57,760 nt of DNA from Candidatus Magasanikiibacteriota bacterium (lineage in GTDB: Bacteria > Patescibacteriota > Patescibacteriia > Magasanikbacterales > UBA922). A model generated the notes under the pieces. That model searched no databases, was not told the origin of the DNA, and was given only the letters and a program-made list of their open reading frames with translations. Made by a program: the position numbers and the translations under genes. Where the stretch lies: contig JBAQFA010000009.1 of NCBI GenBank assembly GCA_049287025.1, forward strand, positions 90,802 to 148,561, written 5' to 3'. Shown here piece by piece: positions 2,143-44,094 of the stretch (positions are counted from its first letter, which is position 1; every line of letters begins with the position of its first letter).

Positions 2143-2748
2143 TTAGATACCATCAAACATAACATCAGATTTAAGGTCGTTACGACTATACAGCCCTAAG
2201 TTCATTTTTTCCGCAAATGATAGGGTACTATTATCAAGTGTATACCCGTATTGTTCTAGAAAGTCTACCCCTTTTGCTATTGCGGTCATTGCGTCACTTT
2301 CATGGATCATTTCTGATATAAATTCTGGATTGGTTTTGCCAGCATCTTTTTTAATAGTAATTATTGTTGTATGCCCAAGTTCTTTAATAATCATATATAC
2401 AAATTTTGCTTCATCAGGTAATTCCCATTCGATAGAATTTTTACCAGGTGCTTTGCTTTCAATACGTGGAAGAGATATTAATTTTTTATTATTTTTATAA
2501 AAAAATGGATGTTTGTGTTTTACAACATCACCATTTTCATATCTGATTATACAAATATCTCCATTAATAGAAATCATTCCTTTGCCTCTAGATATGCCAT
2601 TAATTTTCTCTCCTTGGTCAGTTATAAATCCGCCATGATTAAAAGTGTTTAATAATATTTTAGCATCATCATCTGAAATATTTTTGGTAATGTCATTCAT
2701 AAAATTATTGAGATTATAAATATTTATGTTTAATAGATTAGTAGCCAT
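2143..2748 (-). CDS. Hypothetical soluble protein
   Basis: 201-aa ORF overlapping the upstream membrane-protein gene by 19 nt (operon-like). No motif recognised. Confidence 0.5.
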   Translation of the reverse strand: MATNLLNINIYNLNNFMNDITKNISDDDAKILLNTFNHGGFITDQGEKINGISRGKGMISINGDICIIRYENGDVVKHKHPFFYKNNKKLISLPRIESKAPGKNSIEWELPDEAKFVYMIIKELGHTTIITIKKDAGKTNPEFISEMIHESDAMTAIAKGVDFLEQYGYTLDNSTLSFAEKMNLGLYSRNDLKSDVMFDGI

Positions 2749-3353
2749 TGTAAAGGTAATAAAAATGGTAATATAAAAAAGTTAATAACGTATGTCATCA
2801 ATAAAATAAGTCCGAGAATAACAAGAGAACGTCCAAATTTTATGATAAAATTGTTTTTTTCAATGTCAAGAAAATTAGAACCCCATCCATGATAATTAAA
2901 TAACCATGTGAATACACCAACGAACGTGGCAATACTAATACCTTTTTCAATGCCAAAAAATATAGAAATCAAATAAGTAGTAGCAAACCAAATAAGTATT
3001 ACACATAATAACTTATAAATTCTAATTACATTTTTATTATTTTTGCACCACAATATTATTTTGGTATTTTTGAATTTTTTTGATAAAAGTATTGGTGTGA
3101 CTACAAAAATACATAAGATAAATGGTAAAACAAAGAAAATAAATTCTATATTTCGTAACCATGGAAATAATATCCAAAATGTACGGCCAATAATTATCCA
3201 TAAAAAAATGATAATCAAATAAGATGAGATTTCATCAGCTGATTTTAAAATTTGTTTCATAAATTTTTGATTTAGATTAATCCGTCCCGCCCGAGTATAT
3301 GACTCCGTAATTGTTTGCTGGTAGGAATTTTGACCTGTTATTTTATATAACAT
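2730..3353 (-). CDS. Hypothetical polytopic membrane protein
   Basis: 207-aa ORF with about 5 hydrophobic segments. First gene of the same-strand block 3353->272. Confidence 0.5.
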   Translation of the reverse strand: MLYKITGQNSYQQTITESYTRAGRINLNQKFMKQILKSADEISSYLIIIFLWIIIGRTFWILFPWLRNIEFIFFVLPFILCIFVVTPILLSKKFKNTKIILWCKNNKNVIRIYKLLCVILIWFATTYLISIFFGIEKGISIATFVGVFTWLFNYHGWGSNFLDIEKNNFIIKFGRSLVILGLILLMTYVINFFILPFLLPLQWLLIY

Positions 3354-3467
3354 TTGTCTACGGATAATTCAATATACAGTATACTTGATTATTCTATTTT
3401 TATCAAAATATGCTTTATTTTGTTATTTTATAGTTTTTTGCTATAATCTTGATGTATCATATAACTT

Positions 3468-4700
3468 ATGTCCATATTTATCACAAAAAATTGTTCAGAC
3501 TGTGGCAGTGCGCCGACAAGTCACTGGTCAGAAAGAATGGAAGCAAGGATTTCATATTATATATTTCCATTTTTTAATGTATTTAATACTTGGGGACATT
3601 TTTTTGGCAAGATTTTTTTGCCTTTAACCAGAATAATCTTTCCTTATTTTATAAAATTATTAGTGGTGTTAAAAATAATCCAAATAAAAAATGAGCCAGA
3701 TGAGAAAAATAATTGGCGGAGTAAAGTTTTGTGGGAAGAAGCTGAAAAGAGAGGAATTAAAATGACTGAACTTAGGCCATTTGGTAAATATGTAGATAAT
3801 TTTTGGGCAGAGTATAAGGGAGAAAAGATTTTTTTTGATGGCTTACCTCGACCAAAGGATAAAGTTTATTCAGCTCTAGATTGGATTGATAATAAAACCG
3901 AAATGGCGAAACGATTTTTGGCACAAGGTTTTCCAGTAGCCAAAGGTGGAATCGTCACCAGCTTGAAACAAGCAAAAAAAGTTTTTCAAAAATTATCCAA
4001 ACCAGTTATTACCAAACCAAATGAAGGCTCACGCAGTCGTCATACTACAATTCACATTACCAATGAAGCTGAATTGAAAATTGGCTTTGATAAAGTAAAA
4101 CAATTGTCTCCTTGGGTAGCGATTCAAGAAGAACTAATTGGACCAGTTTATCGGGCGACAGTAATAAATAAAAAGTTAGTGGCGATTTTACGGCGTGATC
4201 CAGCCTGTGTGTATGGTGATGGAGAGAGTAATATAAAAGAATTGGTTATAAAAGAAAATAATAATCCACTACGGCATGGTCCATTATTTCATGAATTGGT
4301 TTTGGATAATGAAGCAATCTCAGAACTTAGTTATCAAAGTTTAATTTTAGATTCTATTCCTACTTTAGATCAAAGAGTGACCCTAGGTACCAAGACCAGT
4401 CGAGGTTCAGGTGGATCAATTGTGGATGTGACAGAAGAAACACACAATGATACAAAAAAATTATTTAATGATGTCGGTGAATTTTTAAATTATCCTTGTG
4501 TGGGAATTGATTTTATTATTTCGGATATAAAAAAATCTTGGGTAGAAACTCCAAGATGTGGAATAATTGAATGTAATAGTTTACCCTTTATTGATCTTCA
4601 TCATTTTCCTTTATTAGGCAAACCAATTAATGTGGCTGGCGCGATTTGGGATTTTATTTACCCCGTGTCATCGGGAAAATTATTTACTGATGTAAAATAA
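3468..4700 (+). CDS. ATP-grasp enzyme resembling the N-terminal ATP-grasp half of cyanophycin synthetase (no Mur-ligase half), with a hydrophobic N-terminus
   Basis: VITKPNEGSRSRHTTIHI..., LVAILRRDPACVYGDGESNIKELV, SRGSGGSIVDVTEETH and GIIECNSLPFIDLHH follow the CphA/RimK-type ATP-grasp pattern. The start is uncertain (alternative Met at 3537). Confidence 0.6.
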   Translation: MSIFITKNCSDCGSAPTSHWSERMEARISYYIFPFFNVFNTWGHFFGKIFLPLTRIIFPYFIKLLVVLKIIQIKNEPDEKNNWRSKVLWEEAEKRGIKMTELRPFGKYVDNFWAEYKGEKIFFDGLPRPKDKVYSALDWIDNKTEMAKRFLAQGFPVAKGGIVTSLKQAKKVFQKLSKPVITKPNEGSRSRHTTIHITNEAELKIGFDKVKQLSPWVAIQEELIGPVYRATVINKKLVAILRRDPACVYGDGESNIKELVIKENNNPLRHGPLFHELVLDNEAISELSYQSLILDSIPTLDQRVTLGTKTSRGSGGSIVDVTEETHNDTKKLFNDVGEFLNYPCVGIDFIISDIKKSWVETPRCGIIECNSLPFIDLHHFPLLGKPINVAGAIWDFIYPVSSGKLFTDVK

Positions 4701-8665: not shown

Positions 8666-9049
8666 CTAATTTTCAGTTTTCAATTTACTTTTTGATGTTT
8701 TGATTATTTTGGCAAATATTAAATTGAGTTCATGAGCCTCTTGCCAGAGAATTCTAGAGCGCTCTCTAGCTGGTTCGTAAGCATTAGCAATCAATCTTAA
8801 CCATAATTTTGTTTCTTTGACTTCCTTTTTGCTAATATTTACTTTGTGTGTAAAATCTTTTGTTGATTCAGCTTCATTGGCTTCATAATAATTAGCCGCT
8901 TGACTGGTTCCAGATTTAATTATTTGTAAAATTAGATTTTTGGTTATTTCATTAATTGGTATAGTTTTGGCAAAATTTATTATATTTTCAGCAAATTTGG
9001 CAGTTCTTTCTTCTAGATCATATTGTTTTTTATTGTTGTCGCCCTCCAT
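8666..9049 (-). CDS. Four-helix-bundle protein (the family often annotated '23S rRNA intervening-sequence protein')
   Basis: 127 aa. The pattern YDLEERTAKFAENIINFAK...QIIKSGTSQAANYYEA...KEVKETKLWLRL matches that family. Free-standing here, with no rRNA nearby. Confidence 0.7.
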   Translation of the reverse strand: MEGDNNKKQYDLEERTAKFAENIINFAKTIPINEITKNLILQIIKSGTSQAANYYEANEAESTKDFTHKVNISKKEVKETKLWLRLIANAYEPARERSRILWQEAHELNLIFAKIIKTSKSKLKTEN

Positions 9050-10204: not shown

Positions 10205-10945
10205 TTATTTTGTATTTTTATTCCACCAGCCATCCCAAATACTTTTCATAGACATAGCAATGGCGCGATCCTCAATAATAATAGCAGTGTAAGGTCGACG
10301 AAAACTCATTAATAATACTTTATTGTCGTAAATATTTATTTCTGTATCTAATTGTAGGTCTTTAAATAATTTGGTTTCGCGTAATTGTTTTTTGTCTTTG
10401 GCTTTTACTTTTTTGCCTTGTGAGCCGTCTTTAGCTACGCAATAAAAAAAGATATTTTTTTTCACGCGCGTTTCTGGTACATACCACAGCCAGTCCTCGG
10501 GGAATTGATTAAACATTTTTTCATAATCAGAAAAAGCATAAACTTTTGCACCGGCTGTTTGGGTTTCTAACAGATCATCCCAACCTTTGCGTAATCCCTC
10601 GGTGCCTTCGTAATAACGTACTTTTGGTTTATTGCCAGGGGTATTAAAGATCCCCATCAATTCTGGCAAAGCAGTTTTTATTTCTTGATAATTTTTTTCC
10701 GCGCGCTTTACCAACACATCAGGATTTTCTGGCACTAAAATTATTTTATCATCTTCTATTACTTCGCTAATAATGTTTTTTGTTTTTAGTGGACCAATGA
10801 AGTTGTAAATATTAGTCCGCTTCACTCCAGATTTTTTTGCCACTTCTTGCACTGTGCCAGAGCCTAATTCCAAAAGAGCCAAATAGATTTTAGCTTCTTT
10901 GTCGTCTAGACCTAGGTTTTGTAAAACGTTATTAATATTTGTCAT
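10205..10945 (-). CDS. TrmB-family transcriptional regulator
   Basis: N-terminal wHTH LGLDDKEAKIYLALLELGSGTVQEVAKKSGVKRTNIYNFI. The start was taken at MTNINN (10945); the upstream extension reads through a GC-rich palindrome. Confidence 0.7.
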   Translation of the reverse strand: MTNINNVLQNLGLDDKEAKIYLALLELGSGTVQEVAKKSGVKRTNIYNFIGPLKTKNIISEVIEDDKIILVPENPDVLVKRAEKNYQEIKTALPELMGIFNTPGNKPKVRYYEGTEGLRKGWDDLLETQTAGAKVYAFSDYEKMFNQFPEDWLWYVPETRVKKNIFFYCVAKDGSQGKKVKAKDKKQLRETKLFKDLQLDTEINIYDNKVLLMSFRRPYTAIIIEDRAIAMSMKSIWDGWWNKNTK

Positions 10946-11351
10946 ATTTTTTGTTCCCCTCCTCAGAGGAGGGGGGGTTAGGGGAGGTTGATAATTCGCT
11001 ACAAGCAATTTCTATTTCAGCTATTACTGTTTCTAAATTATTTAGAGTTTTATAAGCAGAAAATCTAATTATATTATAACCTTCATTTATTAAATAATCT
11101 TCTCGTTTTTTATCTCTGATTATATTTTTTGGTAATAAGTGTATTGGTCCATCTAATTCTACAATTAATTTTACTTCTGGACAATAAAAATCAACTATAT
11201 ACTGTCCTATTCCAAACTGTCTTCTGAATTTATAACCAATTTTTCTATTTCTTATTTTAGACCAGAGCAACATTTCTGGTTTAGTTTGATTTTTTCTAAG
11301 ACTTCTTCTAATGTTTTCTAACTTTTTAGTATTGTGGTGTTTTTGGGGCAT
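10932..11351 (-). CDS. DUF559 (Vsr/PD-(D/E)xK-like) endonuclease-domain protein
   Basis: LRKNQTKPEMLLWSKIRN...FRRQFGIGQYIVDFYCPEVKLIVELDGPIH...REDYLINEGYNIIRF. The C-terminal 20 aa are a read-through of the GC palindrome at 10956-10974. Confidence 0.75.
   Translation of the reverse strand: MPQKHHNTKKLENIRRSLRKNQTKPEMLLWSKIRNRKIGYKFRRQFGIGQYIVDFYCPEVKLIVELDGPIHLLPKNIIRDKKREDYLINEGYNIIRFSAYKTLNNLETVIAEIEIACSELSTSPNPPSSEEGNKKYDKY
10956..10974. repeat. GC-rich perfect palindrome at the 3' end of the DUF559 gene
   Basis: CCCCTCCTC-A-GAGGAGGGG. Confidence 0.8.
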
Positions 11352-11434: not shown

Positions 11435-11463
11435 ATTATATAGCCAAAATATTATCTTGTCAA
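11435..11463 (-). promoter_or_regulatory. Consensus sigma70 promoter driving the DUF559 gene
   Basis: Minus strand TTGACA-17 nt-TATAAT (perfect hexamers), about 85 nt upstream of the start at 11351. Confidence 0.7.
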
Positions 11464-11563
11464 GTTTTTTGACACAAAATATATATTAAAATAATCATAA
11501 ATTTGGCTAATTATAAATAAAAATTAAACAATTACAAATACTGTATATATTTAGTAAATAATA

Positions 11564-11592
11564 TTGACATTAACGTCAATTCGCAATAAACT
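11564..11592 (+). promoter_or_regulatory. Sigma70 promoter of the cassette array
   Basis: TTGACA-17 nt-TAAACT, about 70 nt upstream of the first cassette start. Divergent from the DUF559 promoter. Confidence 0.65.
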
Positions 11593-11607
11593 ACCCTGTT
11601 CCAACAT

Positions 11608-11661
11608 AGGTGTGTTGGATGGCTCTTTACAATGCATGCCCGAGAGGGCGAGGAGGCGGAG
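11608..11661 (+). repeat. Junction module J0 (3' half only: leader + hairpin C + SD)
   Basis: The sequence ..GGATGGCTCTTTACAATGCATGCCCGAGAGGGCGAGGAGGcggag aligns with 12139-12186 and 12525-12575. Hairpin C is GCCC-GAGA-GGGC at 11638-11649, and the SD is at 11650-11656. Confidence 0.75.
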
Positions 11662-12060
11662 ATGAGATTCGTTGATTGGGTCCTGAAGCAAATTCGAAAA
11701 ATAAATTTGGTAGCTATCCTTTCAGTTATCTTTTACGGAATATTCTTCGTGTTCGCGACAGTAGCGGTCATTTCGATGCTTTACCTTATTGTGTGTGGTA
11801 TCCATGCATCTACCGAAAGCACACCATGTGACAAGGCTATTATCGTTGCAGAAAAAAATTTACGTCTAATACCCGATCACATAAATAGTTGTAAGGGGGG
11901 AATGTGCTACAAAGGTGCAAAGTGGAAAGATATGCTGGAAGCATTGCAGTATACAAAAGAGCTGATTGACAGTGTCCCTGGTTGCTATAAGGCACATGGG
12001 TATCGTGACCGAGTTATAGAGCTCATTAACTATCTCAGTCTACCAACTCCTCACAGATAG
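11662..12060 (+). CDS. Cassette ORF 1: membrane-anchored protein with a Cys-containing C-terminal domain (132 aa)
   Basis: ATG lies 5 nt after GAGGAGG. The N-terminal 2-TM region is LVAILSVIFYGIFFVFATVAVISMLYLIVCGI, followed by a soluble ~80-aa part with 4 Cys. The ORF-track start 11632 lies inside the conserved leader. Confidence 0.6.
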   Translation: MRFVDWVLKQIRKINLVAILSVIFYGIFFVFATVAVISMLYLIVCGIHASTESTPCDKAIIVAEKNLRLIPDHINSCKGGMCYKGAKWKDMLEALQYTKELIDSVPGCYKAHGYRDRVIELINYLSLPTPHR

Positions 12061-12186
12061 CCGGTCTCCTCGGGCGCTACCGGTTCAATCAAAACGCGCC
12101 CACTCCATCTTTTTACATAAAATATTTGTGTACGAAGATGGAGGTGTTCTTTAACAACACATGCCCGGAAGGGCAAGGAGGAAGAA
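12061..12186 (+). repeat. Junction module J1 (short variant)
   Basis: Hairpin A1 is CCGGT(13)ACCGG at 12061-12083, and hairpin B1 is CTCCATCTT..AAGATGGAG at 12103-12143. Hairpin C1 is GCCC-GGAA-GGGC at 12163-12174, and the SD AAGGAGG is at 12175-12181. Confidence 0.8.
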
Positions 12187-12405
12187 GTGACTCATTTTTG
12201 GAATTGGGTGGCTGAGGGTATTGAATACTTTTTTATTTTTCTTATTTTTTATCCTTTGTTTGCAGGATGGATATTCTTGGGTCTGATTGTAATTCTGCCA
12301 ATGAATTTGGATTTTATGAAATTGTTGGTACCTGTGTGTAGTGGAATTATCGCAATTCCATTTGCGATAAAAATGACGCGCATTTTGAGAAAGAAAAATG
12401 AGTAA
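12187..12405 (+). CDS. Cassette ORF 2: small 2-3 TM membrane protein (72 aa)
   Basis: GTG start 5 nt after AGGAGG. Hydrophobic throughout, with a basic C-terminus RILRKKNE. Confidence 0.6.
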   Translation: MTHFWNWVAEGIEYFFIFLIFYPLFAGWIFLGLIVILPMNLDFMKLLVPVCSGIIAIPFAIKMTRILRKKNE

Positions 12406-12575
12406 AATTTCTAACCGTCCCCACCCGCTGGCGGTTAGAAAAATTCCACATACAACAAGGAGGTGTATGGTGGAGAACAAGCGGGACTCCATCTTTTTAC
12501 ATAAAAATATTTTGTGTATGAAGATGGAGGTGCTCTTTGAAACTTAGATGCCCTGAGAGGGCGAGGAGGATTGGA
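12406..12575 (+). repeat. Junction module J2 (full-length copy)
   Basis: Hairpin A2 is TCTAACCG(14)CGGTTAGA at 12410-12439. An SD-led mini-ORF runs 12467-12547, and hairpin B2 is at 12487-12529. Hairpin C2 is at 12550-12562, and the SD GAGGAGG is at 12563-12569. Confidence 0.85.
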
Positions 12576-12908
12576 ATGTACGTTTTTCTTCGAGTTTTGC
12601 TTCGCGTAGTTCAACTCGTTGGTGTTGTTAATGCTGTCATGATAGTAGTTTTTGCCGAAAAAAATAATCAGGAGGATTGGAGGATACTCGCTGGTTTAAT
12701 GGGTTTTATTACCTTATTTTGTATTCAGTTGTTTATGGGTGTTTGGTATGCATCTTCTAATACATCAACTGAGGCAGAGGAAGTCTCTTGTAGGGTTAAA
12801 GCCAAATTGTGCGTGGATTCGGCATTTCTATATTTTTGCTACAGCGTTTCTGTTATGTTACTAGGATGTGGTGTTATTATATGTAAAAATATATTGAACC
12901 ACATGTAG
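12576..12908 (+). CDS. Cassette ORF 3: 3-4 TM membrane protein (110 aa)
   Basis: ATG lies 6 nt after GAGGAGG. Hydrophobic segments include VVQLVGVVNAVMIVVF, ILAGLMGFITLFCIQLFMGVW and LYFCYSVSVMLLGCGVII. The ORF-track start 12537 lies in the conserved leader. Confidence 0.6.
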   Translation: MYVFLRVLLRVVQLVGVVNAVMIVVFAEKNNQEDWRILAGLMGFITLFCIQLFMGVWYASSNTSTEAEEVSCRVKAKLCVDSAFLYFCYSVSVMLLGCGVIICKNILNHM

Positions 12909-13036
12909 TAATTGCTTTTAGCCGTCTCCACCCACTGGCGGTTAGAAAATATTCCACTTGGCATGAGGAGGTGTCAGATGGAGAACAAGCGGGACTCCAT
13001 CTTTTTACATAATAAATATTTGTGTACGAAGATGGG
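12909..13036 (+). repeat. Junction module J3 (5' part only: hairpin A, mini-ORF, hairpin B)
   Basis: Nearly identical to 12410-12529: TTAGCCG..CGGTTAGA, then GAGGAGGTGTCAGATGGAGAACAAGCGGGACTCCATCTTTTTACATAA...GAAGATGG. Similarity stops at 13035/13036. Confidence 0.85.
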
Positions 13037-13042
13037 TATAGG

Positions 13043-13071
13043 TTGACAGCTTCATATTTTGTTGTTATAAT
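13043..13071 (+). promoter_or_regulatory. Perfect consensus sigma70 promoter of the Fic gene
   Basis: TTGACA-17 nt-TATAAT, 13 nt before the ATG at 13085. Confidence 0.7.
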
Positions 13072-13084
13072 AAGTAGGTAAATT

Positions 13085-14035
13085 ATGACCCTAACTTTTA
13101 TGTCACAAATATATAAGAAAATCATCAAAAATAAGCCATATTTTTACTTAAGTGAAAGAGTTTTAATAAATGGAAAATATAAAAAAATTCAGGTTTATTT
13201 AGGTAAAACTACCCCTAACAATTTAGTTGAATATAATAAGATTTTGGTTGAGAAAGAAAAGAAAGTGATTAAAGAAAATTTACCTAAAATTTTTAAATTT
13301 GAAAAGATTTTTGATGCTGAGCAAATATTAAAATTAGAAAATTTAAGACTGAACTGGAAGTACATATTTAATAATTTATCAGATTTTAAAAAAGAACAAT
13401 TATGGACACGTTATGCTGTACAATTTATTTTTGAATCCAATGCTATAGAAGGCAGTAAACTTAGCCAGCAAGAAGTTGGTGCAATTATAAAAAAACAATA
13501 TTTAAATAAATCAGTAGAAAAAAGAGAAATTAAAGAGGTGCGAAATTCTATCCTGGCTCTAAAAATAATTAGAGATAAAAAATTTGTTTTAAATCAACAC
13601 AGCATTATCAATCTGCATAAATTATTAGTTGATGGGTTGGACATAAACACTGGGTTTAAGAAAGTTGATATTGTTGTTAATAATAAACAGACAACGCCAG
13701 CAGGTCAAGTAAGAATGGAAATGAAAAAACTGTTGGATTGGTGGAAAAAAAATAAAAAAAGTAAACAACATCCTTTGGCTTTGGCAGCTGATTTTCATCA
13801 GCGTTTTGAGAGTATTCATCCTTTTGAAGATGGCAATGGTAGAATTGGGCGTTTATTGTTTAATTGGATTTTATTACAATATGGCTATCCACCAATTTTA
13901 TTTTTATACCAGAATAGAAAGTTGTATTTTAATGCCCTGAATCAAGCGGATGAAGGTAGAAAGAATAAGTGGCACTGGTTTTGTATTAGAGTATATAAAG
14001 ATAGTATTAAATGGTCACTTGAAAATATAAAATAG
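13085..14035 (+). CDS. Fic/DOC-family protein (class II, self-inhibited AMPylase type)
   Basis: Fic motif [12 protein letters not shown]. An N-terminal SNAIEG fits the (S/T)xxxE(G/N) inhibitory helix motif. Confidence 0.85.
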
Positions 14036-14106: not shown

Positions 14107-16281
14107 TTATTTATCAAATCTATAAATCATGATTTGATTATCAATATTCCAAAAACCATTTGATAGAGTTTGTGCCTGCTCCATACTGTTGGGATACATT
14201 GGCCAGTAGTCGGTGATTACTAGATAGGCTCGATTAATATTTATTTTTTCCATAGTATCTTTGACAAGGTCATATTTAAATTCTTCGCCATTCATTATTT
14301 GTTCATAGCGGATGTTTAGTTCGCTAGCCATTGGCACAGAATAATAATTTAACAATCCCCACGGACTATGATAATAAGGTCCGAAACCATAAGTCTTCAT
14401 AGCGCCCGCGCCTAATAATTGGTTCGCAAAAACTAAATAACCTTGTTTGCCTTTTTCAATATTATATATAGTTTCAATGGCTTTATAATCCACAGCGCGG
14501 ATATTATTTATATTTGGTCTAGAAATTTGATCAAAACGCGGGTAAGTAAGATACCAACTGATTAAACCCAAGCCAGATAACAAAAATATTAAAATAATTT
14601 TTTGCCAGATTGGTCTTTGCTTAATATTAATAAAAAAATTATTTAGAAATATTATTAGTAGTGGCCAGAGCAACCATTTACTATAATTCATTAAACGATA
14701 AGAATAATTAAAATGATCACCAAAAGTGAACTCGGCCACCTCTATAAGAGAGACAAATAACCAAGCTGAGATAAGAGCTGTGTCAAAGGCTAGAATGATT
14801 AATTTTTTTTCTGGTGAAGTTTTAAATTTTTTAAAAAAATAAATTAATAAGAATATAAAAATAATTAGAATATAAAATTTTTCATAACCATAAATAAGTT
14901 TTTGCCACCAAGAACCATAATTAGTAAAATACCAAATTGGGTCATTGAATAAACTAAAAAATTTATAAATATAAAATAGAGGATCGGCAATTGTAATATC
15001 TTTACCAATGAACCAATTATAAAAAGCAAAAGTAAATACCACAGCTATTGATGCTAGGATAAAAGTAATTATCGTTGTAGTTTTTTTAAATTGGCTTTTG
15101 TTATAAAACCAATTACTAATGGTTATTATCAAGATATGAAGTCCAATAAAAGGATGAACTAGGATTGAAGTAATGGAAGCGCCAAGAGCTAATAGCCAAT
15201 AATTATTTTGTTTTAATTTTATAAATAAATAATTATTAATTAGAGCTGTCAAAGCGAGTAGTATGGCAAAGGAATAAGGTGAAGTGGAAACAAATTGATT
15301 GGGGATGAGAAGTAAAATTGATAAAGGGATTATAATAATTTGGCTTTTTAATTTAAGTTTTTCAAAAAAATATTGTCCTAAATAGGTTAGAGAAATAATA
15401 GACAATAGAGGTAGGAAAAAACGTTCAATTGTGGTAAATGACCAATTGGTAAAATAATGAATTATAATTTCCAATACATACTGACCAATATAGAATGGTG
15501 TAAGTGGAGTGATACTGCCATTATTCGCAATATGATCGAGAGCAGCTTGGTGTAATAGAGTGTCATAGCCAAAGGACAAAGAATAGCGAGCTGTAATTAT
15601 ACCGAGAATAGAGGCTAGAGAAAAGAAAGTTGTTAATCTGGATATTTTTTGTTGATTAATTAAGCTCCAGATTATAATTACTAAGTTTATGAAAAATAAT
15701 AAGAAAATTAAAGGATGAATATTGATCCATGGCGATGGCAGGCCATTATAAATTGGTTTGGAGAAAAAATAGACAAGTAAAATAGTATTTATAAAAATTA
15801 TGGACAATTCAAATAAGTTTAGTTTATCTATTTTTGGTAGATTAATTATTAATGTTTTTTTATTTAATATACTTAACAGTAAGATTGTCATTATTAACCA
15901 TAGGGAAATTACTAATTTTGTGACACCAAAAATATAGTAGAGTCCAGTCAAAGAAATTATTGTATAAAAAAGTAAAATCCAATATTTATTATTAATTTTG
16001 TAAACCGGCCAAATTTGACTGATGAGTTGCCCTGCTAAAAATATTGAAAATAACAATGTGATCGCTCCGAGCCAATTGGATAGAAAATTAAAAATACACA
16101 ATATACTTAAAATTGTAGTAACGCTGGTAATAAAAAATATTTTTGTGCGATTGAGAGAAAGAATAGGAAGCATAAAATTTGTTAACTCTATGTTATCACA
16201 ATTAGCTTGATTATTAAATATTGACCCAATAAAAAACCCGAGTATTGACTCGGGTAATTTTGCAATGTTTTTATCTACCAC
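14107..16281 (-). CDS. Large polytopic membrane protein with a C-terminal extracytoplasmic domain (possible GT-C-type glycosyltransferase)
   Basis: 724 aa, with more than 15 hydrophobic segments and then a ~170-aa soluble tail. The functional guess rests on architecture only. Confidence 0.4.
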   Translation of the reverse strand: MVDKNIAKLPESILGFFIGSIFNNQANCDNIELTNFMLPILSLNRTKIFFITSVTTILSILCIFNFLSNWLGAITLLFSIFLAGQLISQIWPVYKINNKYWILLFYTIISLTGLYYIFGVTKLVISLWLIMTILLLSILNKKTLIINLPKIDKLNLFELSIIFINTILLVYFFSKPIYNGLPSPWINIHPLIFLLFFINLVIIIWSLINQQKISRLTTFFSLASILGIITARYSLSFGYDTLLHQAALDHIANNGSITPLTPFYIGQYVLEIIIHYFTNWSFTTIERFFLPLLSIISLTYLGQYFFEKLKLKSQIIIIPLSILLLIPNQFVSTSPYSFAILLALTALINNYLFIKLKQNNYWLLALGASITSILVHPFIGLHILIITISNWFYNKSQFKKTTTIITFILASIAVVFTFAFYNWFIGKDITIADPLFYIYKFFSLFNDPIWYFTNYGSWWQKLIYGYEKFYILIIFIFLLIYFFKKFKTSPEKKLIILAFDTALISAWLFVSLIEVAEFTFGDHFNYSYRLMNYSKWLLWPLLIIFLNNFFINIKQRPIWQKIILIFLLSGLGLISWYLTYPRFDQISRPNINNIRAVDYKAIETIYNIEKGKQGYLVFANQLLGAGAMKTYGFGPYYHSPWGLLNYYSVPMASELNIRYEQIMNGEEFKYDLVKDTMEKININRAYLVITDYWPMYPNSMEQAQTLSNGFWNIDNQIMIYRFDK

Positions 16282-16849
16282 GGATTGTTATTTTGTGGTA
16301 ATCAGCTGGAACAGTTTTGGTCATTTTTACTTTAAAGTAAGGATAGACGTAGGTATAAGGGTATGGTTGCATTCGGCAAGCGTTATTGGCACAGCCATAT
16401 TCACACCAAATACTTTTATTTTTTACCATGCCATTAATACCGCAGGTAGCTTCTGATAAAAGGGATTGACTAGTACATTTATCGTTTGTGATTTGATATA
16501 AACCATTAGTATTAACACTACTTACAGATCCTTTGGTAAAATAATCTTCTTTATCAGTATCGGTACAGGTTGGACATGGCCCCGTCCATTTTACTTGGTA
16601 TTTGTTATTAGCAGTGCAATTTAAGATATAAAAACGTTTACCATAACCAGCATCACGACAACCATTGGTTAATTCGTAGGTGCGTCCAAAATTTGTAATT
16701 TTAACACCGTTGACAGTATTGACACACTTGGTCACGGAGACAGTATTTTTGGTCCATTTTATTGAACCACCAGCACTAACAGCTGTAGCGCCGAGAATTA
16801 AGACGGAGAGACCTGATAGGATAACAATTTTTAGATTAGTGTTTTTCAT
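16271..16849 (-). CDS. Secreted cysteine-rich protein
   Basis: Signal-peptide-like N-terminus MKNTNLKIVILSGLSVLILGATAVSA. About 14 Cys in 165 mature residues. Confidence 0.55.
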   Translation of the reverse strand: MKNTNLKIVILSGLSVLILGATAVSAGGSIKWTKNTVSVTKCVNTVNGVKITNFGRTYELTNGCRDAGYGKRFYILNCTANNKYQVKWTGPCPTCTDTDKEDYFTKGSVSSVNTNGLYQITNDKCTSQSLLSEATCGINGMVKNKSIWCEYGCANNACRMQPYPYTYVYPYFKVKMTKTVPADYHKITIRGR

Positions 16850-17660: not shown

Positions 17661-20600
17661 ATGGGACCAACTGATTCCAAATTGATCCAAGGTATCCACT
17701 TTGGACAAGAACTTGATGTAGAATTTAAATACAATCCAGAATTTGGTTTGCGTTTTAAACGGGTTTTTAGTAAAGATAACGAGAGCCCGTTTGATAGTGT
17801 GGTTTATGAAAAACGTCAATCAGTAATTCGTGAACCAGATGGTACGGTTGTTTTTGAAATGAAGGATATTGAAATTCCCGCTGGTTGGTCACAGGTAGCC
17901 ACAGATATTATTGCCCAAAAATATTTTCGTAAAACTGGCGTGCCACAATATGATAATAATGGTATGCCAAAGTTGAGCGCTGATGGGTCGCCCGTGCTTG
18001 GGCCTGAAACCAGCGTGAAACAAACCATGCATCGCTTGGCTGGTACTTGGCGTTATTGGGGAGAAAAGTATGGCTATTTTGCTAGCCAAGAAGATGCGCA
18101 AATTTTTTATGATGAGCTCGTGGTCATGCTTTTGAAACAAATGATGGCACCAAATTCTCCTCAGTGGTTTAACACAGGTTTGAATTGGGCCTATGGTATT
18201 AATAGCACTTCCCAGGGTCACTATTATGTAGATCCGGATACTGGCGTAATGACTAGATCAAAAGATGCCTATACTCATCCTCAACCACATGCTTGTTTTA
18301 TCCAATCTGTTTCTGATGATCTCGTAAATGAAGGTGGTATTATGGATCTCTGGGTACGAGAAGCTCGTCTTTTTAAATATGGTTCTGGGACTGGGACTAA
18401 TTTTTCTGGACTTCGAGGAAATGGTGAACCATTGTCTGGTGGCGGAAAATCTAGCGGTCTCATGAGCTGGCTTAGAATTGGCGACCGAGCGGCTGGTGCT
18501 ATCAAATCTGGTGGTACGACTCGACGCGCAGCCAAGATGGTAACATTGGATATTGATCACCCAGATATTGAACAATTTATAAATTGGAAAGTAAATGAAG
18601 AAAAGAAAGTAGCCGCTTTGATTGCGGCTGGCTATTCAGCTGATTATGAAGGTGAAGCCTATGGTACTGTATCCGGACAAAATTCTAACAATTCTGTACG
18701 GGTGCCACACAAATTTATGGAGGCAGTAAAGAATGATAGCTCTTGGAATTTGACTTGGCGGGTAGATGGTAGTACTTGCAAGACTTTGAAAGCGCGCGCT
18801 CTGTGGGATCAAATTGCTTTTGCGGCTTGGGCTTGTGCTGATCCAGGGTTACAATATGATGGAACAATCAATGATTGGCATACTTGTCCAGAATCTGGTC
18901 GAATCAACGCTTCCAATCCTTGCAGTGAATACATGTTTATTGATAACACGGCTTGCAACCTAGCTTCATTTAACTTGGTAAAATTTTTTAATACTGATAC
19001 TAAAGAATTTTTAGTGGCTGATTTTAAACACGCCACCAGAGTAGTGACTACAGTTTTGGAAATTAGCATTCTAATGGCTCAATTTCCAAGCAAAGAAATT
19101 GCTCAGGGTAGTTATGATTTTCGTACGCTTGGTTTAGGCTATGCCAATGTGGGTTCAGTCTTAATGATGAGTGGTATTCCTTATGAATCAGAAGATGCTT
19201 ATGCTTTTACTGCTTCTGTTACCGCTCTCATGACAGCCGAGAGTTATAAGACTAGCGCAGAATTGGCCAAGCTTTTAGGACCTTTCCCAAAATTTGAATT
19301 CAATCGATCTGATATGTTGCGCGTAATTCGTAATCATCGTCGAGCTGCTTTTAATGCCGATGACAGTGATTATGAAAAATTAACTGTCAAGCCAAAAAGT
19401 ATTAATCCAGAATTTGCTCCAGCCTATTTAGTATCAGCGGCCAGAGAAAGCTGGAATGAAGCCTTGGCCATGGGAGAAAAATATGGTTATAGAAATGCTC
19501 AGACTACTCTTCTCGCCCCAACTGGTACGATTGGATTACTTATGGATTGTGCAACTACAGGCGTAGAACCAGATTTTGCTTTGGTGAAATTTAAAAAATT
19601 GGCTGGTGGAGGTTATTTCCGGATTGCCAATGAAGCTGTGCCATTAGCTCTAAAAAATCTGGGTCATAATGAACAAGAAGTAATTGATGTTATCAATTAC
19701 ATGCGTGGAACTGCTGATATAAAAAATGCACCTCATGTTAATGAAAATAGTTTAAAAGCCAAAGGTTTTAATGATGAAGATATTGAAGCGGTTAATAAAG
19801 CTCTCAAAGGCGCATTTGAAATTAAATTTGCTTTTAATGTTTGGACACTTGGTGAAGATTGTATGAAGCGAGTCGGCTTTGCGCCTAGCCAATACAATGA
19901 TCCAAATTTTAGTATGCTCATTGCCCTTGGTTTTTCTGAAAGTGAAATTGAAGAAGCCAATCAATATGTGTGTGGTACCATGACCATTGAAGGCGCGCCA
20001 CATTTGAAAGTAGAAGATTATCCAGTATTTGATACGGCTAATAAAAATGGTAAAAAAGGCAAACGTTATATTCATTATATGGGTCATGTAAAAATGATGT
20101 CGGCTGTGCAACCATTTTTGTCTGGCGCGATTTCCAAAACTATCAACATGCCTAATGATGCCACCCTAGAAGATGTAAAATTTGCTTATGAAGAATCTTG
20201 GCGTCTGGGTCTAAAAGCGGTCGCTCTATATCGCGATGGTTCCAAATTGAGTCAACCATTATCAACTAGTTCAAAAAATAAAGGTGACAAAAAGTCCTCC
20301 TCTGCTGAAGCTACGGAGGATGAAGAAGTGGAAGTGAAAGTAATGGCTGAAGATAGAAAACCAGTCATTACTGAAGAAGAAGTAATGCAAGTCGCCAAAA
20401 TGATTAATACTGATAATGTAGAAGACGCGGTAAGACAAGCAAGCGAAATTCTTTCCAATCATGTTGGTATTCATACTCCAATGGAATCATACACTCGTGA
20501 TGGTCAAATAGCTGAACGTCGCGTTTATCTTCATGGTGAAAAGAGAAAACTTCCAGCCAAGCGTAGTGGTATTACAGTCGCAGCCAAAGTTGGTAATCAA

Positions 20601-21218
20601 CAAATCTGGCTTCGCACTGGAGAATATCCAGATGGAAAAGTCGCTGAGATCTTTATTGATATGTATAAGGAAGGCGCAACCGTTAGATCACTCCTCAACA
20701 TGTTTGCGATTTCAGTTTCTATGGGTTTGCAATATGGGGTGCCGTTAGAAAAATATGTAGAAAATTTCTTGTTTACCAATTTTGCTCCAGCTGGTTTTAC
20801 TGACCACCCCAATATCAAGTCTTGCAATTCTATTATTGATTTTGTTTTTCGTGTATTAGGTATGGAATATCTTGGCCGAACTGATTTTGTTCAAGTACCA
20901 CCAAAAGGAATTCAAAAAAATAAATTTGAAAATCTAGCCAAGCTAGCTGAAAATAGTTCCGCTCAAGAAACTATGACCCTAGAAACTAAAGTAGAAGTTG
21001 AGACTAGAGTAGAGATGGAAGATGGTGAAGAAATAATGCTCGCAGAAAAACAAGAAGTCTTGCCAAGCCTAGGGAATAAACCACTCAATGCCTCAGATGA
21101 AGCTTTGAAAAATATGATGGGGGATGCGCCGGCTTGTCCTACTTGTGGACATGTGACAGTTAGAAACGGGGCGTGTTATAAGTGCTTGAATTGTGGGGAA
21201 TCGCTTGGTTGCAGTTAA
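17661..21218 (+). CDS. nrdJ: Adenosylcobalamin-dependent (class II) ribonucleotide reductase
   Basis: 1185 aa. Motifs: GSGTGTNFSGLRG, SGGTTRRAAKM, active-site NPCSEYMFIDNTACNLAS, ALYRDGSK, and a C-terminal CPTCG...CYKCLNCG zinc ribbon. Confidence 0.9.
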   Translation: MGPTDSKLIQGIHFGQELDVEFKYNPEFGLRFKRVFSKDNESPFDSVVYEKRQSVIREPDGTVVFEMKDIEIPAGWSQVATDIIAQKYFRKTGVPQYDNNGMPKLSADGSPVLGPETSVKQTMHRLAGTWRYWGEKYGYFASQEDAQIFYDELVVMLLKQMMAPNSPQWFNTGLNWAYGINSTSQGHYYVDPDTGVMTRSKDAYTHPQPHACFIQSVSDDLVNEGGIMDLWVREARLFKYGSGTGTNFSGLRGNGEPLSGGGKSSGLMSWLRIGDRAAGAIKSGGTTRRAAKMVTLDIDHPDIEQFINWKVNEEKKVAALIAAGYSADYEGEAYGTVSGQNSNNSVRVPHKFMEAVKNDSSWNLTWRVDGSTCKTLKARALWDQIAFAAWACADPGLQYDGTINDWHTCPESGRINASNPCSEYMFIDNTACNLASFNLVKFFNTDTKEFLVADFKHATRVVTTVLEISILMAQFPSKEIAQGSYDFRTLGLGYANVGSVLMMSGIPYESEDAYAFTASVTALMTAESYKTSAELAKLLGPFPKFEFNRSDMLRVIRNHRRAAFNADDSDYEKLTVKPKSINPEFAPAYLVSAARESWNEALAMGEKYGYRNAQTTLLAPTGTIGLLMDCATTGVEPDFALVKFKKLAGGGYFRIANEAVPLALKNLGHNEQEVIDVINYMRGTADIKNAPHVNENSLKAKGFNDEDIEAVNKALKGAFEIKFAFNVWTLGEDCMKRVGFAPSQYNDPNFSMLIALGFSESEIEEANQYVCGTMTIEGAPHLKVEDYPVFDTANKNGKKGKRYIHYMGHVKMMSAVQPFLSGAISKTINMPNDATLEDVKFAYEESWRLGLKAVALYRDGSKLSQPLSTSSKNKGDKKSSSAEATEDEEVEVKVMAEDRKPVITEEEVMQVAKMINTDNVEDAVRQASEILSNHVGIHTPMESYTRDGQIAERRVYLHGEKRKLPAKRSGITVAAKVGNQQIWLRTGEYPDGKVAEIFIDMYKEGATVRSLLNMFAISVSMGLQYGVPLEKYVENFLFTNFAPAGFTDHPNIKSCNSIIDFVFRVLGMEYLGRTDFVQVPPKGIQKNKFENLAKLAENSSAQETMTLETKVEVETRVEMEDGEEIMLAEKQEVLPSLGNKPLNASDEALKNMMGDAPACPTCGHVTVRNGACYKCLNCGESLGCS

Positions 21219-25871: not shown

Positions 25872-26345
25872 ATGTCATTTGAATCAGAAAAATCTGACGT
25901 ACGTCGGTCAAGAGAAAGTCGAGAATATGGGGCTGAACGAAAGGAAAGTAGAGAAGGTGAAGTGAATAAAGAATTGCAAGCGGCCGCAGCCATGGAGCGC
26001 GCGGATGTTATGATTCGTGAAGTAAAGAGTAGTAAAAAACAAATGCAAAATATTGTTCGCCATATGCAAGAAGTACAGACAGCGATTAGACAGCTTCGAG
26101 CCCAGCTTCAACTGGCACAGACTGATGATGATGTTTCGTCTCTAAAACAAGATAGGAAAAAGGTGGAAGAATTAAAAAAGAAAATTGGGGGTTATATAGA
26201 AGAATTAGAAAAGATGCGTGGTGATCTAATTCGAGAACAGATGGAAGAATTAAAAAATGGCATTGGAGTTGGAATGACGAGTGCACAGTTGCAGAAAAAA
26301 GCCGAGGAGATGGTGGAGGATTTGATTAATAGCGTAAAAGAATAA
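25872..26345 (+). CDS. Coiled-coil protein, charged (hypothetical)
   Basis: 157 aa, K/E/R/Q-rich with a heptad-like pattern. Sits 4 nt after the previous gene. Confidence 0.5.
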   Translation: MSFESEKSDVRRSRESREYGAERKESREGEVNKELQAAAAMERADVMIREVKSSKKQMQNIVRHMQEVQTAIRQLRAQLQLAQTDDDVSSLKQDRKKVEELKKKIGGYIEELEKMRGDLIREQMEELKNGIGVGMTSAQLQKKAEEMVEDLINSVKE

Positions 26346-26350
26346 TTTCT

Positions 26351-27796
26351 ATGAAAGCACCAAAACCAGAATTTGAAAGTCAATTACCACACGAAGGCAA
26401 TCTAGATGGTTTATTAGACACATTGGAGAATAGGGGGATAGTTGACGAAGAGATTGCTTATGATTTACAAGCGGGTCATGTCGACAAAGGTGTAGTACAA
26501 AGTTTTCTTGGTAGATTAAAAGATTTGGGAATTAAATTACCAAATCAATTTTTAACTTTATTAAAAGAAAGACCCAGTTTTGCTGTTTTATTAACTGTAT
26601 TAGAAATGTTGGCAGTGTCTCCAGCAATGGCTTTGGCTGAGGATGTTGAAGAAAAAAGTTTTTCTGAACCAGCTATATTTGTTAGTCCTGAAAAATTGAA
26701 AAATATTCAGCGTGATGCTCCAAGAGGGTATTTAAAATCAAATTTGGAAAAGCCACAAGATTTGGCTAGTATTGGAAAAATGTTGGTTGAACCAGCGACA
26801 GTGATGATTTCTCTCCCGACTAATGATGGCATTACTAGAGAAATAGCCAAAGTAGTTTTGGGGAAAAAATATGAAGACGGTTCAGTTGAAACTACTATTG
26901 ATTTTACTGTACCTTATCAATACGCTAGTGATTTTGCTTCTTCTGACCCAGTAGATAAAGAAAAAATGAAAGATGATTTACGGCAAACAGTCGTAGCTTT
27001 ATTAGAAAAATTAACTCCAATGATTTTTGGTGGTTCTTTTTATGAAGAAGATTTTTCTGGTGTAGCCAAAACAGAATCACAAAAAGTAAATCTGAAAAGA
27101 ATAGAAGTGACAGGGTTTGCTTCGCCTGAGGATCCTTTTCCATATGATTTTAGTCACAAAGACCCAAGAAATGAAAAGTTGGCAAAGATGAGAGCAGAAA
27201 ATGCTGCTAATGCTTTGACAGAATTACTAAGAGATAAAGGTGTGGATGTGCAGGATATTATTACTCATAAGGGCAATGGCGAAGTTCAATTTGATGACGA
27301 TGAAAAAAATAAACTTCAAGAATTGAGTGAAAAAGTTAAAATAAAATTACCCAAAGGAATAGATAATTTAGGTGATGCAAAATTAATTGAATTGGTGCAC
27401 AAATATAATCGAGGGGAATTGAGTGATGAAGAAGCCAATGTTGAATTGGCAAAAATGTTAGGTTCAAAAAGAAAAGTAGAAATAAAAGTGACAATTGAAA
27501 ATCATAGAGTAGAATTAATTTTACCAGTACCATATATACTGATTGCTATTGGTATTCTAATGTCCATTCCATGGACTAGAAGGCAAAGAGAAGACAGGCG
27601 TGAAAGAAGATGGCGACGAGCACAAAGATATATGGATTTAGAAATGAGAAAACCTTTGCCATACAATCCTCCGCCAGAACCGCTTGTGGGTTCTCATGAT
27701 CGTTATATTCCGCCACCCCCAGCAGCAATAAATCCCAATTTACCACCTCCAGTTCGTGGTCAATCTGGCCGTAGGCCACACAATAATCATCCATAA
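26351..27796 (+). CDS. Hypothetical protein with an OmpA-like segment, a late TM helix and a Pro/Arg-rich tail
   Basis: VTGFASPED...NEKLAKMRAENAANALTELLRDKGV resembles the OmpA_C core. TM segment LILPVPYILIAIGILMSIPW, then RRQREDRRERRWRR and a PPP-rich end. Confidence 0.45.
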   Translation: MKAPKPEFESQLPHEGNLDGLLDTLENRGIVDEEIAYDLQAGHVDKGVVQSFLGRLKDLGIKLPNQFLTLLKERPSFAVLLTVLEMLAVSPAMALAEDVEEKSFSEPAIFVSPEKLKNIQRDAPRGYLKSNLEKPQDLASIGKMLVEPATVMISLPTNDGITREIAKVVLGKKYEDGSVETTIDFTVPYQYASDFASSDPVDKEKMKDDLRQTVVALLEKLTPMIFGGSFYEEDFSGVAKTESQKVNLKRIEVTGFASPEDPFPYDFSHKDPRNEKLAKMRAENAANALTELLRDKGVDVQDIITHKGNGEVQFDDDEKNKLQELSEKVKIKLPKGIDNLGDAKLIELVHKYNRGELSDEEANVELAKMLGSKRKVEIKVTIENHRVELILPVPYILIAIGILMSIPWTRRQREDRRERRWRRAQRYMDLEMRKPLPYNPPPEPLVGSHDRYIPPPPAAINPNLPPPVRGQSGRRPHNNHP

Positions 27797-36762: not shown

Positions 36763-37185
36763 ATGAATGAAATATTGCTTACAGTAGATTCTGTAGTGAT
36801 AATTAATAATGAAAAAATATTATTAATCAAACGTGCCAAAGAACCGTTCATGGAAAAGTATGCTTTTCCTGGTGGTCATGTTGATTTAGATGATATTGAT
36901 ACTAAATCTGCTTGTGCGCGTGAACTACAAGAAGAAACAGGCTTGAAAGTTAATCCAGAAGATTTGGAGTTTTTAATTATTTTAGATGAATTAAATCGTG
37001 ATCCACGTCCAGGGAGAAGAATTTCTATTGTTTACAAAATTAATTTACCATCAGAAGATTTGTTAAAGGATTGTAAAGCCGACAGTGATGCCAAAGAGTT
37101 AATTATAAAGAATATTGATGAATTGAAACCAGATGATATGGCGTTTGATCATTGGAAAGTGATTGAGATATTAAAAAACCGCTAG
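36763..37185 (+). CDS. NUDIX hydrolase
   Basis: Nudix box [25 protein letters not shown]. Confidence 0.85.
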
Positions 37186-37197
37186 TCAGCGGTTTTT
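37174..37197. terminator. Bidirectional terminator containing both convergent stop codons
   Basis: AAAAACCGC-TAGTCA-GCGGTTTTT. The NUDIX TAG (37183-85) and the hisIE stop (complement of 37182-84) overlap in CTAG. Confidence 0.75.
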
Positions 37198-37751: not shown

Positions 37752-37820
37752 ATTCGGACATTAATATTATTTTTGTTTAATTAATTTTTGTAGCATTGAT
37801 TAAAACAGATTTAAATTGAT

Positions 37821-39877: not shown

Positions 39878-39878
39878 A

Positions 39879-39945
39879 AACATTGATTTCCTGCCTGCGC
39901 AGGCAGGCACTGATTAATTAATGGATTTCACAGATAATAATTGTG
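39879..39945 (+). repeat. REP/MITE-like element, copy 4 of 4, inside the his operon
   Basis: AAACATTGATTTCCTGCCTGCGCAGGCAGGCACTGATTAATTAATGGATTTCACAGATAAT. Its first 31 nt are identical to the corresponding stretch of copy 2. Confidence 0.85.
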
Positions 39946-39959
39946 ATATATTAAATGAA

Positions 39960-42064: not shown

Positions 42065-42065
42065 A

Positions 42066-43959: not shown

Positions 43960-44094
43960 AATATAAGGAATAAAGAGTAAAGAGTAAGCCTGTCCGCAAT
44001 GCAAGTCCCGATAAAATCGGGATTGCAGGCGGGGAATAAGTTTTTGTAAAATACCGACTTGAGTTTATCCTGAGCGGAGCCAAAGAGTTCGGGG

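Follow-up and report, generated by a model that had tools for sequence, protein, structure and literature searches.

In the early and late polycistronic mRNAs of phage T7, related long stem-loops between the cistrons serve as RNase III sites and leave hairpin-protected ends. In T4-type phages, an intergenic motif of about 100 bp, the promoter early stem-loop (PeSL), contains a G-T-paired stem-loop, ends in the Shine-Dalgarno (SD) sequence and start of the next gene, and flanks orphan open reading frames, or ORFans (PMC2839356; PMC4122927). Recombination between PeSL copies has been proposed to delete, insert or replace open reading frames (ORFs) without a dedicated recombinase (PMC2839356). 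Here we describe an array of unrelated small ORFs separated by a conserved junction, located at positions 11564-13071 of a 57,760-nucleotide stretch of DNA (the window) from a Candidatus Magasanikiibacteriota bacterium (assembly GCA_049287025.1, contig JBAQFA010000009.1, positions 90,802 to 148,561 of the forward strand). The window sequence is identical to that of contig JBAQOB010000085.1 of GCA_049304355.1.

The best explanation of the locus is an ORFan cassette operon restricted to one lineage, a subgroup of Ca. Magasanikbacteria. With about even confidence we further propose that its junction is a portable intercistronic mRNA module for processing, stability and translation, which also supplies the homology for gain, loss and exchange of cassettes. 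Five arrays were found in total, namely that of the window and four related ones, denoted L004, L132, L138 and L002. A preliminary description of the window, made from the sequence alone, had reported an integron-like cassette array of three membrane-protein genes behind one promoter, and when the sequence was re-read the promoter, the ORFs and the junction elements were all located where it had placed them. The features of the array, with ORF lengths counted from the SD-proximal starts, are:

11564-11592, + strand: array promoter TTGACA-17-TAAACT, with 10 of 12 consensus matches in the promoter scan
11593-11661, + strand: leader J0, read from the sequence and its fold
11600-11619 and 11623-11628: 5' hairpin and CTCTTT of J0
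11638-11649 and 11650-11656: hairpin C (GCCC-GAGA-GGGC) and SD (GAGGAGG) of J0
11662-12060, + strand: cassette 1 ORF, 132 amino acids (aa), N-terminal transmembrane helix and Cys-containing helical domain
12061-12186, + strand: junction J1, with hairpin A of type I (CCGGT 12061-12065, ACCGG 12079-12083)
12072-12077 with 12096-12101: possible pseudoknot of J1 (GGGCGC with GCGCCC)
12103-12143 and 12147-12152: hairpin B and TTCTTT of J1
12163-12174 and 12175-12181: hairpin C (GCCC-GGAA-GGGC) and SD (AAGGAGG) of J1
12187-12405, + strand: cassette 2 ORF, 72 aa, GTG start, two hydrophobic segments
12406-12575, + strand: junction J2, with hairpin A of type II at 12410-12439
12424-12429 with 12480-12485: possible pseudoknot of J2 (CCCGCT with AGCGGG)
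about 12445-12475, and 12467-12547: hairpin P1.1 of J2, with AAGGAGGTG in the loop, and a short upstream ORF
12487-12529 and 12533-12538: hairpin B and CTCTTT of J2
12550-12562 and 12563-12569: hairpin C and SD (GAGGAGG) of J2
12576-12908, + strand: cassette 3 ORF, 110 aa, three hydrophobic segments
12909-13042, + strand: terminal junction J3, with hairpin A (12917-12946), P1.1, a short upstream ORF and hairpin B (12995-13036)

The promoter at 11564-11592 is the only one of the array. Each of the three window proteins has two to three hydrophobic segments, in agreement with their earlier designation as membrane proteins, and the G+C content is 0.40-0.45 within the array vs 0.21-0.31 in windows just outside it. 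The repeated junction, of 125-170 nt, is specific to this interval, since ACTCCATCTTTTTACATAA occurs three times in the 57,760 bases (0.05 expected) and the hairpin C/SD motif and the hairpin A motif twice each (0.00 expected), with all copies of the three motifs inside 11564-13071. The junction families were recovered by direct-repeat analysis, and a hidden Markov model (HMM) of the junction found no copy in the window beyond the array. Some details given in the preliminary description needed revision. CTCTTT was said to precede every ORF, which holds for J0 and J2, but J1 has TTCTTT. The blocks after ORF2 and ORF3 are conserved, but not almost identical as stated (J2 and J3 share 86% over 121 nt), and a variant of the block comes after ORF1 as well, in which hairpin B is unchanged but hairpin A differs and the AGGAGGTGT segment is missing. 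The 'GAGAACAAGCGGGACTCCATC...GAAGATGG' block is present and constitutes the 3' strand of the possible pseudoknot followed by a 20-bp hairpin.

Hairpin A begins 0-8 nt past the stop codon and comes in three sequence types, CCGGT..ACCGG (type I), CTAACCG..CGGTTAG (type II) and GCCTRAC..GTYAGGC (type III, in L132). Six bases in its loop complement the six that lie immediately 5' of hairpin B (CCCGCT with AGCGGG in type II, GGGCGC with GCGCCC in type I), and the loop lengths are compatible with an H-type pseudoknot. Hairpin P1.1 is found in type II junctions only; its stem occurs in either of two sequences, its AGGAGGTG loop is conserved, and an ATG follows. Hairpin B is a stem of 18-20 bp with one mismatch in 12/12 copies, and its lowest 9 bp (CUCCAUCUU/AAGAUGGAG) are nearly invariant; in L004-J2 and L138-J1 extra hairpins in the apical loop extend it to about 35 bp. 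These extra hairpins are two different ones (L004, about 2445-2400, minus strand; L138, about 2872-2835, minus strand). The element before the next start consists of CTCTTT, the 4-bp hairpin C with a loop of the GNRA type (GAGA, GGAA, GGGA or GAAA), and GAGGAGG at 5-6 nt from the start codon. In the minimum-free-energy folds AGGAG is paired with CUCUU, and in the fold of J0 the pairing of CUCUUU with GAGGAG encloses hairpin C. The terminal junction of every array stops directly after hairpin B. J3 lacks the CTCTTT, hairpin C and SD part, and the -35 box of the Fic promoter (13043-13071) follows it directly. The terminal junctions of L004 and L132 likewise abut the -35 box of the next gene's promoter, and that of L138 shows the same end after hairpin B.

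Every type II junction contains an SD (the AGGAGGTG in the hairpin loop) followed by a short ORF of 11-29 codons, which crosses the pseudoknot strand and hairpin B (12467-12547 and 12978-13044 in the window; also in L002, L004 and L138). The short ORF of J2 and J3, MENKRDSIF..., was considered as a conserved peptide, which was rejected: L004-J1 has a frameshift in it, differing hairpin insertions break it up in L004-J2 and L138-J1, and junctions of types I and III do not have it. What is always present in type II junctions is an SD-preceded short ORF of variable sequence, which could be a translational coupling device.

The junctions fold as RNA, and specifically on the sense strand. The folding z-scores relative to shuffled sequences are -5.95 for J1 and -5.10 for J2, the sense RNA is more stable than the antisense in 17/17 junctions (mean difference 8.2 kcal/mol), and hairpin B has 2-5 G.U pairs in the sense strand vs 0-1 in the antisense strand in all 12 copies. 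The consensus fold has three hairpins. Across three upper-stem variants the hairpin B stem is preserved by compensatory changes (A-U to U-A, C-G to U-A, U.G to A-U) and wobble changes, and hairpin A shows exchanges of CCG/CGG to CCA/UGG and of A-U to G-C. When seven type II junctions were aligned with MAFFT, 92% of the cells pair, compared with 42-47% with slid partners. The promoter scan gave no promoter-like or terminator-like site in J1 or J2; a weak antisense-strand promoter match in J3 (12977-12948, 9/12) is without counterpart in J2. Given the sense-strand folding, the G.U asymmetry, the maintenance of the hairpin B stem and the lack of promoters and terminators in J1 and J2, an mRNA structure is the most economical and best reading of the junction, and the junction is a new candidate structured RNA motif. 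Among Rfam families only tRNAs pass the gathering threshold in the window, and matches in the array region are chance-level microRNA and small nucleolar RNA matches (E 0.4-4). That the module had not been recognised as any described element agrees with the Rfam, Pfam and phage/plasmid BLAST searches, which were all blank.

Searches for further copies of the junction, and comparison of the locus between relatives, both suggested in the preliminary description, revealed further arrays with other ORFs as well as gain and loss of cassettes. The same site, with its promoter/leader or its junctions, is found in relatives with wholly different ORFs (3, 4 or 1 cassettes). L004, from Ca. Magasanikbacteria UBA11710, is syntenic with the window (EF-P, bPH, RuvB and TrmB on one side, a 724-aa membrane protein on the other) and has the promoter and leader of the window followed by three different cassettes of 156, 88 and 117 aa. 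Contigs with close homologues of the adjacent TrmB regulator yielded L132, whose junctions are of type III and whose four cassettes (63, 37-52, 78 and 121 aa) are again different, L138, which has one cassette, of 141 aa, and a terminal junction, and L139/L140, an empty site where the promoter region drives the next gene directly and the module is absent. Relative to this empty site, L138 carries about 690 nt inserted between the promoter spacer and TAAAGGTCG. The promoter region is kept in L004 and L138 (177-197 nt, 82-83% identity), and the J0 leader is common to these two and the window. L002, a Logan assembly locus that carries the homologue P0001 of cassette 1, has the same junction modules; cassette 1 comes first in the window but is internal in L002, where a soluble protein of 181 aa, a membrane protein of 112 aa and a fourth ORF come after it in place of the window's ORF2 and ORF3. 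A cassette-type array, as had been proposed, is thus supported over a local duplication of an untranslated region (UTR), since in relatives the same site holds different ORFs or none and the shared cassette sits at another position.

Outside these loci the module is scarce. A junction pattern scan of one genome for each of 185,579 species gave six matches, of which only L004 carries other module motifs, and the specific 21-mer had no match in the Joint Genome Institute (JGI) metagenome contigs. A loose SD-hairpin pattern gave at least 120 matches in the JGI contigs, with no other module motif in any fetched locus. Pattern scans of viral contigs gave no true copy, BLASTN of J2 against phage and plasmid collections gave no match, and neither did six-frame junction peptides used as a chimeric query against a set of 5.8 billion proteins. 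More distant TrmB homologues (71-78% identity, L144-L149) have no array. As it was found in a few related loci, with one true match (L004) in the species genomes and no true copy in the JGI, viral, phage and plasmid collections, the module is real, rare and restricted to a subgroup of Ca. Magasanikbacteria.

The junctions are far better conserved than the genomes that carry them. Between host genomes the flanking TrmB and RuvB genes are saturated with synonymous differences (pS 0.47-0.77), and yet the junction blocks are 86-97% identical. Window J2 and the terminal junction L138-J1 share 96-97% over 95 nt (window 12411-12505), window J3 and the terminal junction of L004 (L004 J3) 92-94%, and window J1 and L002 J1 agree at 51/52 positions, counted from hairpin A up to where hairpin B begins, with an adjacent gene whose pS is 0.42. 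Identity within an array is lower than between genomes (82% for window J2 vs J3, 75% for L004 J1 vs J2). The junctions are also mosaics of segments. Free combination is seen between the three types of hairpin A (I, II, III) and the three of hairpin B (a, b, c); both A-I and A-III occur with B-a as well as with B-b. L138-J1 is a hybrid of types III and II with the join inside CTRACCG, and in different genomes one junction variant, at 96% identity, adjoins ORFs that are unrelated. The identity between genomes, the mosaic segments and the occurrence of one variant at unrelated ORFs indicate very strong constraint together with recombination among junctions and a movement of junction-bounded ORFs between lineages.

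A comparison of the 15 cassette proteins from the five arrays by BLASTP and hhalign gave a single related pair, window cassette 1 and L002 cassette 1. The three window proteins have no similarity to each other by either method, so that they are, as stated earlier, unrelated, and they are not diverged paralogues. Among 5.8 billion proteins, and among 1.84 billion representatives searched exhaustively with a profile, cassette 1 has P0001 as its only homologue (64% aa identity), and exact look-ups of ORF1 found nothing on record. The ratio of nonsynonymous to synonymous divergence (dN/dS) of this pair is 0.23 with dS 0.63, which indicates that cassette 1 is a genuine gene under purifying selection. 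Structure prediction, also suggested in the preliminary description, gave for cassette 1 an AlphaFold2 model (predicted local distance difference test score, pLDDT, 76) with a long transmembrane helix and a helical bundle; the Foldseek search with it found no informative neighbour in the PDB, only generic helical bundles with E > 0.2. Scans of 13 of the 15 cassette proteins with Pfam and PADLOC gave no match above threshold for any of them. Cassette 2 has no Pfam or PADLOC match, and its exact sequence is absent from a collection of 15 billion proteins; cassette 3 has sub-threshold Pfam matches only and is a singleton cluster. Exact look-up of ten cassette proteins placed eight in clusters of one or two and found two absent, among them window ORF2. 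By these searches the cassettes are database orphans. N-terminal or multiple hydrophobic segments are present in 12/15 of them, and their third-position G+C content (GC3) is heterogeneous, spanning 0.32-0.68, and in general exceeds the 0.23-0.39 of the host genes at the flanks.

No recombinase neighbours the array. In the window no ORF of at least 110 aa has a Pfam match to a recombinase, of the PF00589 type or any other, or to a transposase, in line with what had been reported from the sequence. About a dozen window ORFs are without any Pfam match, and since large ones are among them (14107-16849 on the minus strand, 2143-4700 and 25872-27796, including the 724-aa polytopic membrane protein beside the array) this statement may miss enzymes of unknown type. 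Beside L004, L132 and L138 no recombinase was found among the called genes and long ORFs, those of L004 not having been run against Pfam, and no IntI or XerD-like gene lies beside the four arrays with flanks. The gene upstream of the array encodes a TrmB-family regulator (plus a DUF559 gene in the window). The window contains Type IV pilus genes, and L132 contains recA.

These observations suggest a mechanism in which one sigma-70-type promoter, probably under the divergent TrmB-family regulator, would transcribe a row of unrelated small ORFs. Hairpin B has about the stem length of an RNase III-type site (roughly 20 bp or more of near-continuous double-stranded RNA) and may be a double-strand-specific (RNase III-type) processing site or a protein-binding site that separates the cistrons, whereupon the 3' ends would be protected by hairpin A and the 5' ends by hairpin C. 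Translation initiation may be gated by the CUCUUU/SD pairing, and in type II junctions the exposed SD-like loop together with the variable short ORF could provide translational coupling across the structure. An ORF placed between two modules, whatever it encodes, would then be expressed. The 80-170 nt module around every ORF would also give homology for RecA-type recombination, either after uptake of DNA or between direct repeats, and with a copy of this adaptor on either side of each ORF, homologous recombination could suffice for cassette deletion, for insertion of an excised circle and for replacement, with no need for a dedicated integrase.

Several points weigh against this proposal. The nearly invariant 9-bp stem base of hairpin B would suit an RNase no better than a protein with sequence specificity, which might be a recombinase. 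While the shuffling is explained by homologous recombination, the first acquisition of junctions by a new ORF is not, and direct repeats of this length should delete readily, so that their persistence needs selection. Changes on both sides of a pair occur in only 2/43 pairs of the seven type II junctions (a value reached by 47/500 shuffles), and the covariation score of these junctions equals the shuffled mean and is not significant, the copies being too similar for the statistical test. A single type switch supports the pseudoknot, which in window J3 is broken. Furthermore, L132-L137 are one identical sequence from different samples with no within-population variants, the five arrays all come from metagenomes, and the search for a recombinase covered the fetched contigs only.

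A recombinase encoded elsewhere (a Xer-like tyrosine recombinase, an HUH enzyme or a new enzyme) could instead use the junction as its attachment site, either at the inverted repeat CTCCATCTT...AAGATGGAG or at hairpin A, some copies of which have the form RYYYAAC...GTTRRRY. The array would then be a new type of element that functionally resembles an integron or a CALIN, an attC-site cluster that has no integron integrase. This is the alternative we take most seriously, albeit as an unlikely one. It would account for the cassette turnover and the empty site, for the near-invariance of the stem base in 12 hairpin B copies despite saturated flanks, for the discrete array boundaries (the left one falls in the promoter spacer, and the right one directly follows hairpin B) and for the occurrence of one junction variant (96% identical) in different genomes beside ORFs that are unrelated; in L132-J3, hairpin A reads exactly GCCTAAC-N13-GTTAGGC, and CALINs without a nearby intI are common in bacteria (PMC4889954). 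On the other hand, no recombinase is found within the 57 kb or beside L004, L132 and L138, and the AAC/GTT triplets are not conserved (GAC/GTC in L132-J4, CCGGT/ACCGG in J1). Hairpin A, of 27-35 nt, is without L boxes, and the arms of the inverted repeat are 23-60 nt apart, unlike tyrosine-recombinase core sites. Moreover, the wobble-pair asymmetry favours the sense strand and RNA, and the mosaic breakpoints, being several and different, fit homology-driven exchange. A version in which the junction is both an mRNA adaptor and the recombination site of a trans-encoded non-IntI enzyme or of an RNA-mediated step, that is, an independent integron-like invention of the candidate phyla radiation (CPR) that installs foreign ORFs behind a resident promoter, is in our view rather doubtful.

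Two further explanations were considered. A vertically inherited operon, in which a long ancestral array or duplicated UTRs were trimmed in each lineage and the junctions were kept as expression signals, gains from the large distance between the compared genomes (pS 0.47-0.77), which leaves ample time for gene loss, from terminal junctions that could be positional orthologues (92-94% identity), and from the identity of copies from different samples. However, the 11 cassettes of the four flanked arrays share nothing, so an ancestor with over 11 cassettes would be required, of which each lineage kept a wholly separate set. Cassette 1 differs in position between the window and L002, the GC3 of the cassettes is heterogeneous and above that of host genes, an internal window junction is 96% identical to a terminal junction elsewhere, hybrid junctions exist, and UTR duplication cannot put unrelated ORFs of 37-181 aa between copies; we therefore consider this explanation very improbable. 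Transcribed intergenic palindromic repeats, such as the repetitive extragenic palindromic (REP), enterobacterial repetitive intergenic consensus (ERIC) and Correia elements, can affect mRNA stability, and hairpin B is a 43-nt near-palindrome, as would be expected if the junction were a selfish small repeat (REP- or ERIC-like, or like a miniature inverted-repeat transposable element, MITE) inserted between pre-existing genes. But all copies in the 57 kb and in all fetched loci lie inside arrays, there is one true match in 185,579 species genomes and none in JGI contigs, viral contigs, phages and plasmids, the module is always in one orientation and includes the SD of the next ORF, and the genes between copies differ among relatives. 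The chance that the junction is such a repeat is minimal, and this alternative was rejected. The portable mRNA module that also supplies recombination homology is the reading we retain.

One further feature lies between the array and the divergent promoter on the TrmB side:

11457-11475, no strand: palindrome TTGTCAA-N5-TTGACAC, formed by two back-to-back -35 boxes

This palindrome is kept in L004, L132, L138 and the empty-site L139, and is probably a TrmB operator that would serve both divergent promoters. A gene for a DUF559/Vsr-like endonuclease (10932-11351, minus strand) lies between the TrmB gene, the start of which it overlaps by 14 nt, and the perfect-consensus promoter of TrmB (11463..11435, minus strand). 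It is absent from the syntenic L004, L132, L138 and L139 and for this reason looks like a recent insertion. At the other edge, the Fic/DOC-family gene (13043-14035, plus strand) has a perfect TTGACA-17-TATAAT promoter (13043-13071) with a TG extension, fused to the end of the array. A gene for a periplasmic binding protein lies between the array and Fic in L138, a place that in L004 and L132 is occupied by a 325-aa helix-turn-helix protein; the interval as a whole is a variable island.

Elsewhere in the window, the histidine biosynthesis genes hisG, D, C, B, H, A/F and IE form what looks like a complete operon (37182-44004, minus strand), which is unusual for a CPR genome. A class II ribonucleotide reductase of 1185 aa is encoded at 17661-21218 (plus strand); its barrel-domain match is split in two stretches, which may reflect an intein or other insertion. 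A four-helix-bundle protein of the PF05635 '23S rRNA intervening sequence' family (8666-9049, minus strand) adjoins RuvB; the window gave no reverse transcriptase.

If the proposed module is real in function as well, gene-cassette arrays would exist that are tied neither to integron integrases nor to phages, and a CPR bacterium with a reduced genome would keep a plug-and-play expression site with a structured mRNA module as its connector. The array would be a bacterial-chromosome counterpart to PeSL-mediated shuffling, and a concrete, testable case for the acquisition and expression of ORFan genes in Patescibacteria. Its small, membrane-anchored, lineage-specific cassettes would be candidates for surface, host-interaction or immunity roles in episymbionts, and the module could act as a search handle for further such genes.

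Compared with described systems, the array resembles integrons and CALINs in that promoterless, co-oriented cassettes of mostly unknown function stand behind one promoter, with content that varies between genomes, in the repeated element of 80-130 nt after each ORF, and in that no integrase is nearby, as in CALINs. The attC site, however, is one imperfect hairpin of 57-141 nt, bounded by RYYYAAC/GTTRRRY and with L boxes and extrahelical bases, whereas the junction is made up of three or four distinct hairpins. Of these, hairpin A (27-35 nt) alone has a likeness to an R''/R' pair, and neither L132-J4 nor the J1 type retains its AAC/GTT triplet. This bears out the earlier remark that the junction does not have the R''-L''-L'-R' layout of attC. 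In addition, attC folds on the bottom strand and the junction on the sense strand, the 5' UTR of each cassette is conserved here, unlike in integrons, and attC sites are reported to be more alike within an array than between genomes (PMC4889954), the opposite of what the junctions show. Membership among integrons, which had been entertained, is accordingly not borne out: there is no IntI and no attC hairpin, and it is the sense strand that folds. The array also works like recombinase-associated immunity-gene arrays, but membership among these is likewise not supported. Arrays of the rAID-1 type (bioRxiv 10.1101/471110) are defined by a 5' XerD-like recombinase, for which there is no gene beside the four arrays with flanks; their genes are recognisable homologues of immunity families, whereas the 13 cassette proteins scanned here with Pfam and PADLOC gave no family match, and the sign of the GC skew is opposite.

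As at the RNase III sites of phage T7, long stem-loops recur between the cistrons of one transcript, here as predicted from sequence; the T7 sites are not known to be linked to cassette turnover and have no sequence relationship to the junction. The system that appears closest in logic is PeSL. Each PeSL has a strong sigma-70 promoter and a terminator and resides in a phage genome, whereas the present array has one promoter for its whole length, none in J1 or J2, and no terminators, and the module is a multi-hairpin mRNA element on a bacterial chromosome. What the two have in common are ORFan cassettes between conserved motifs, hybrid junctions such as L138-J1, and presence/absence differences between relatives.

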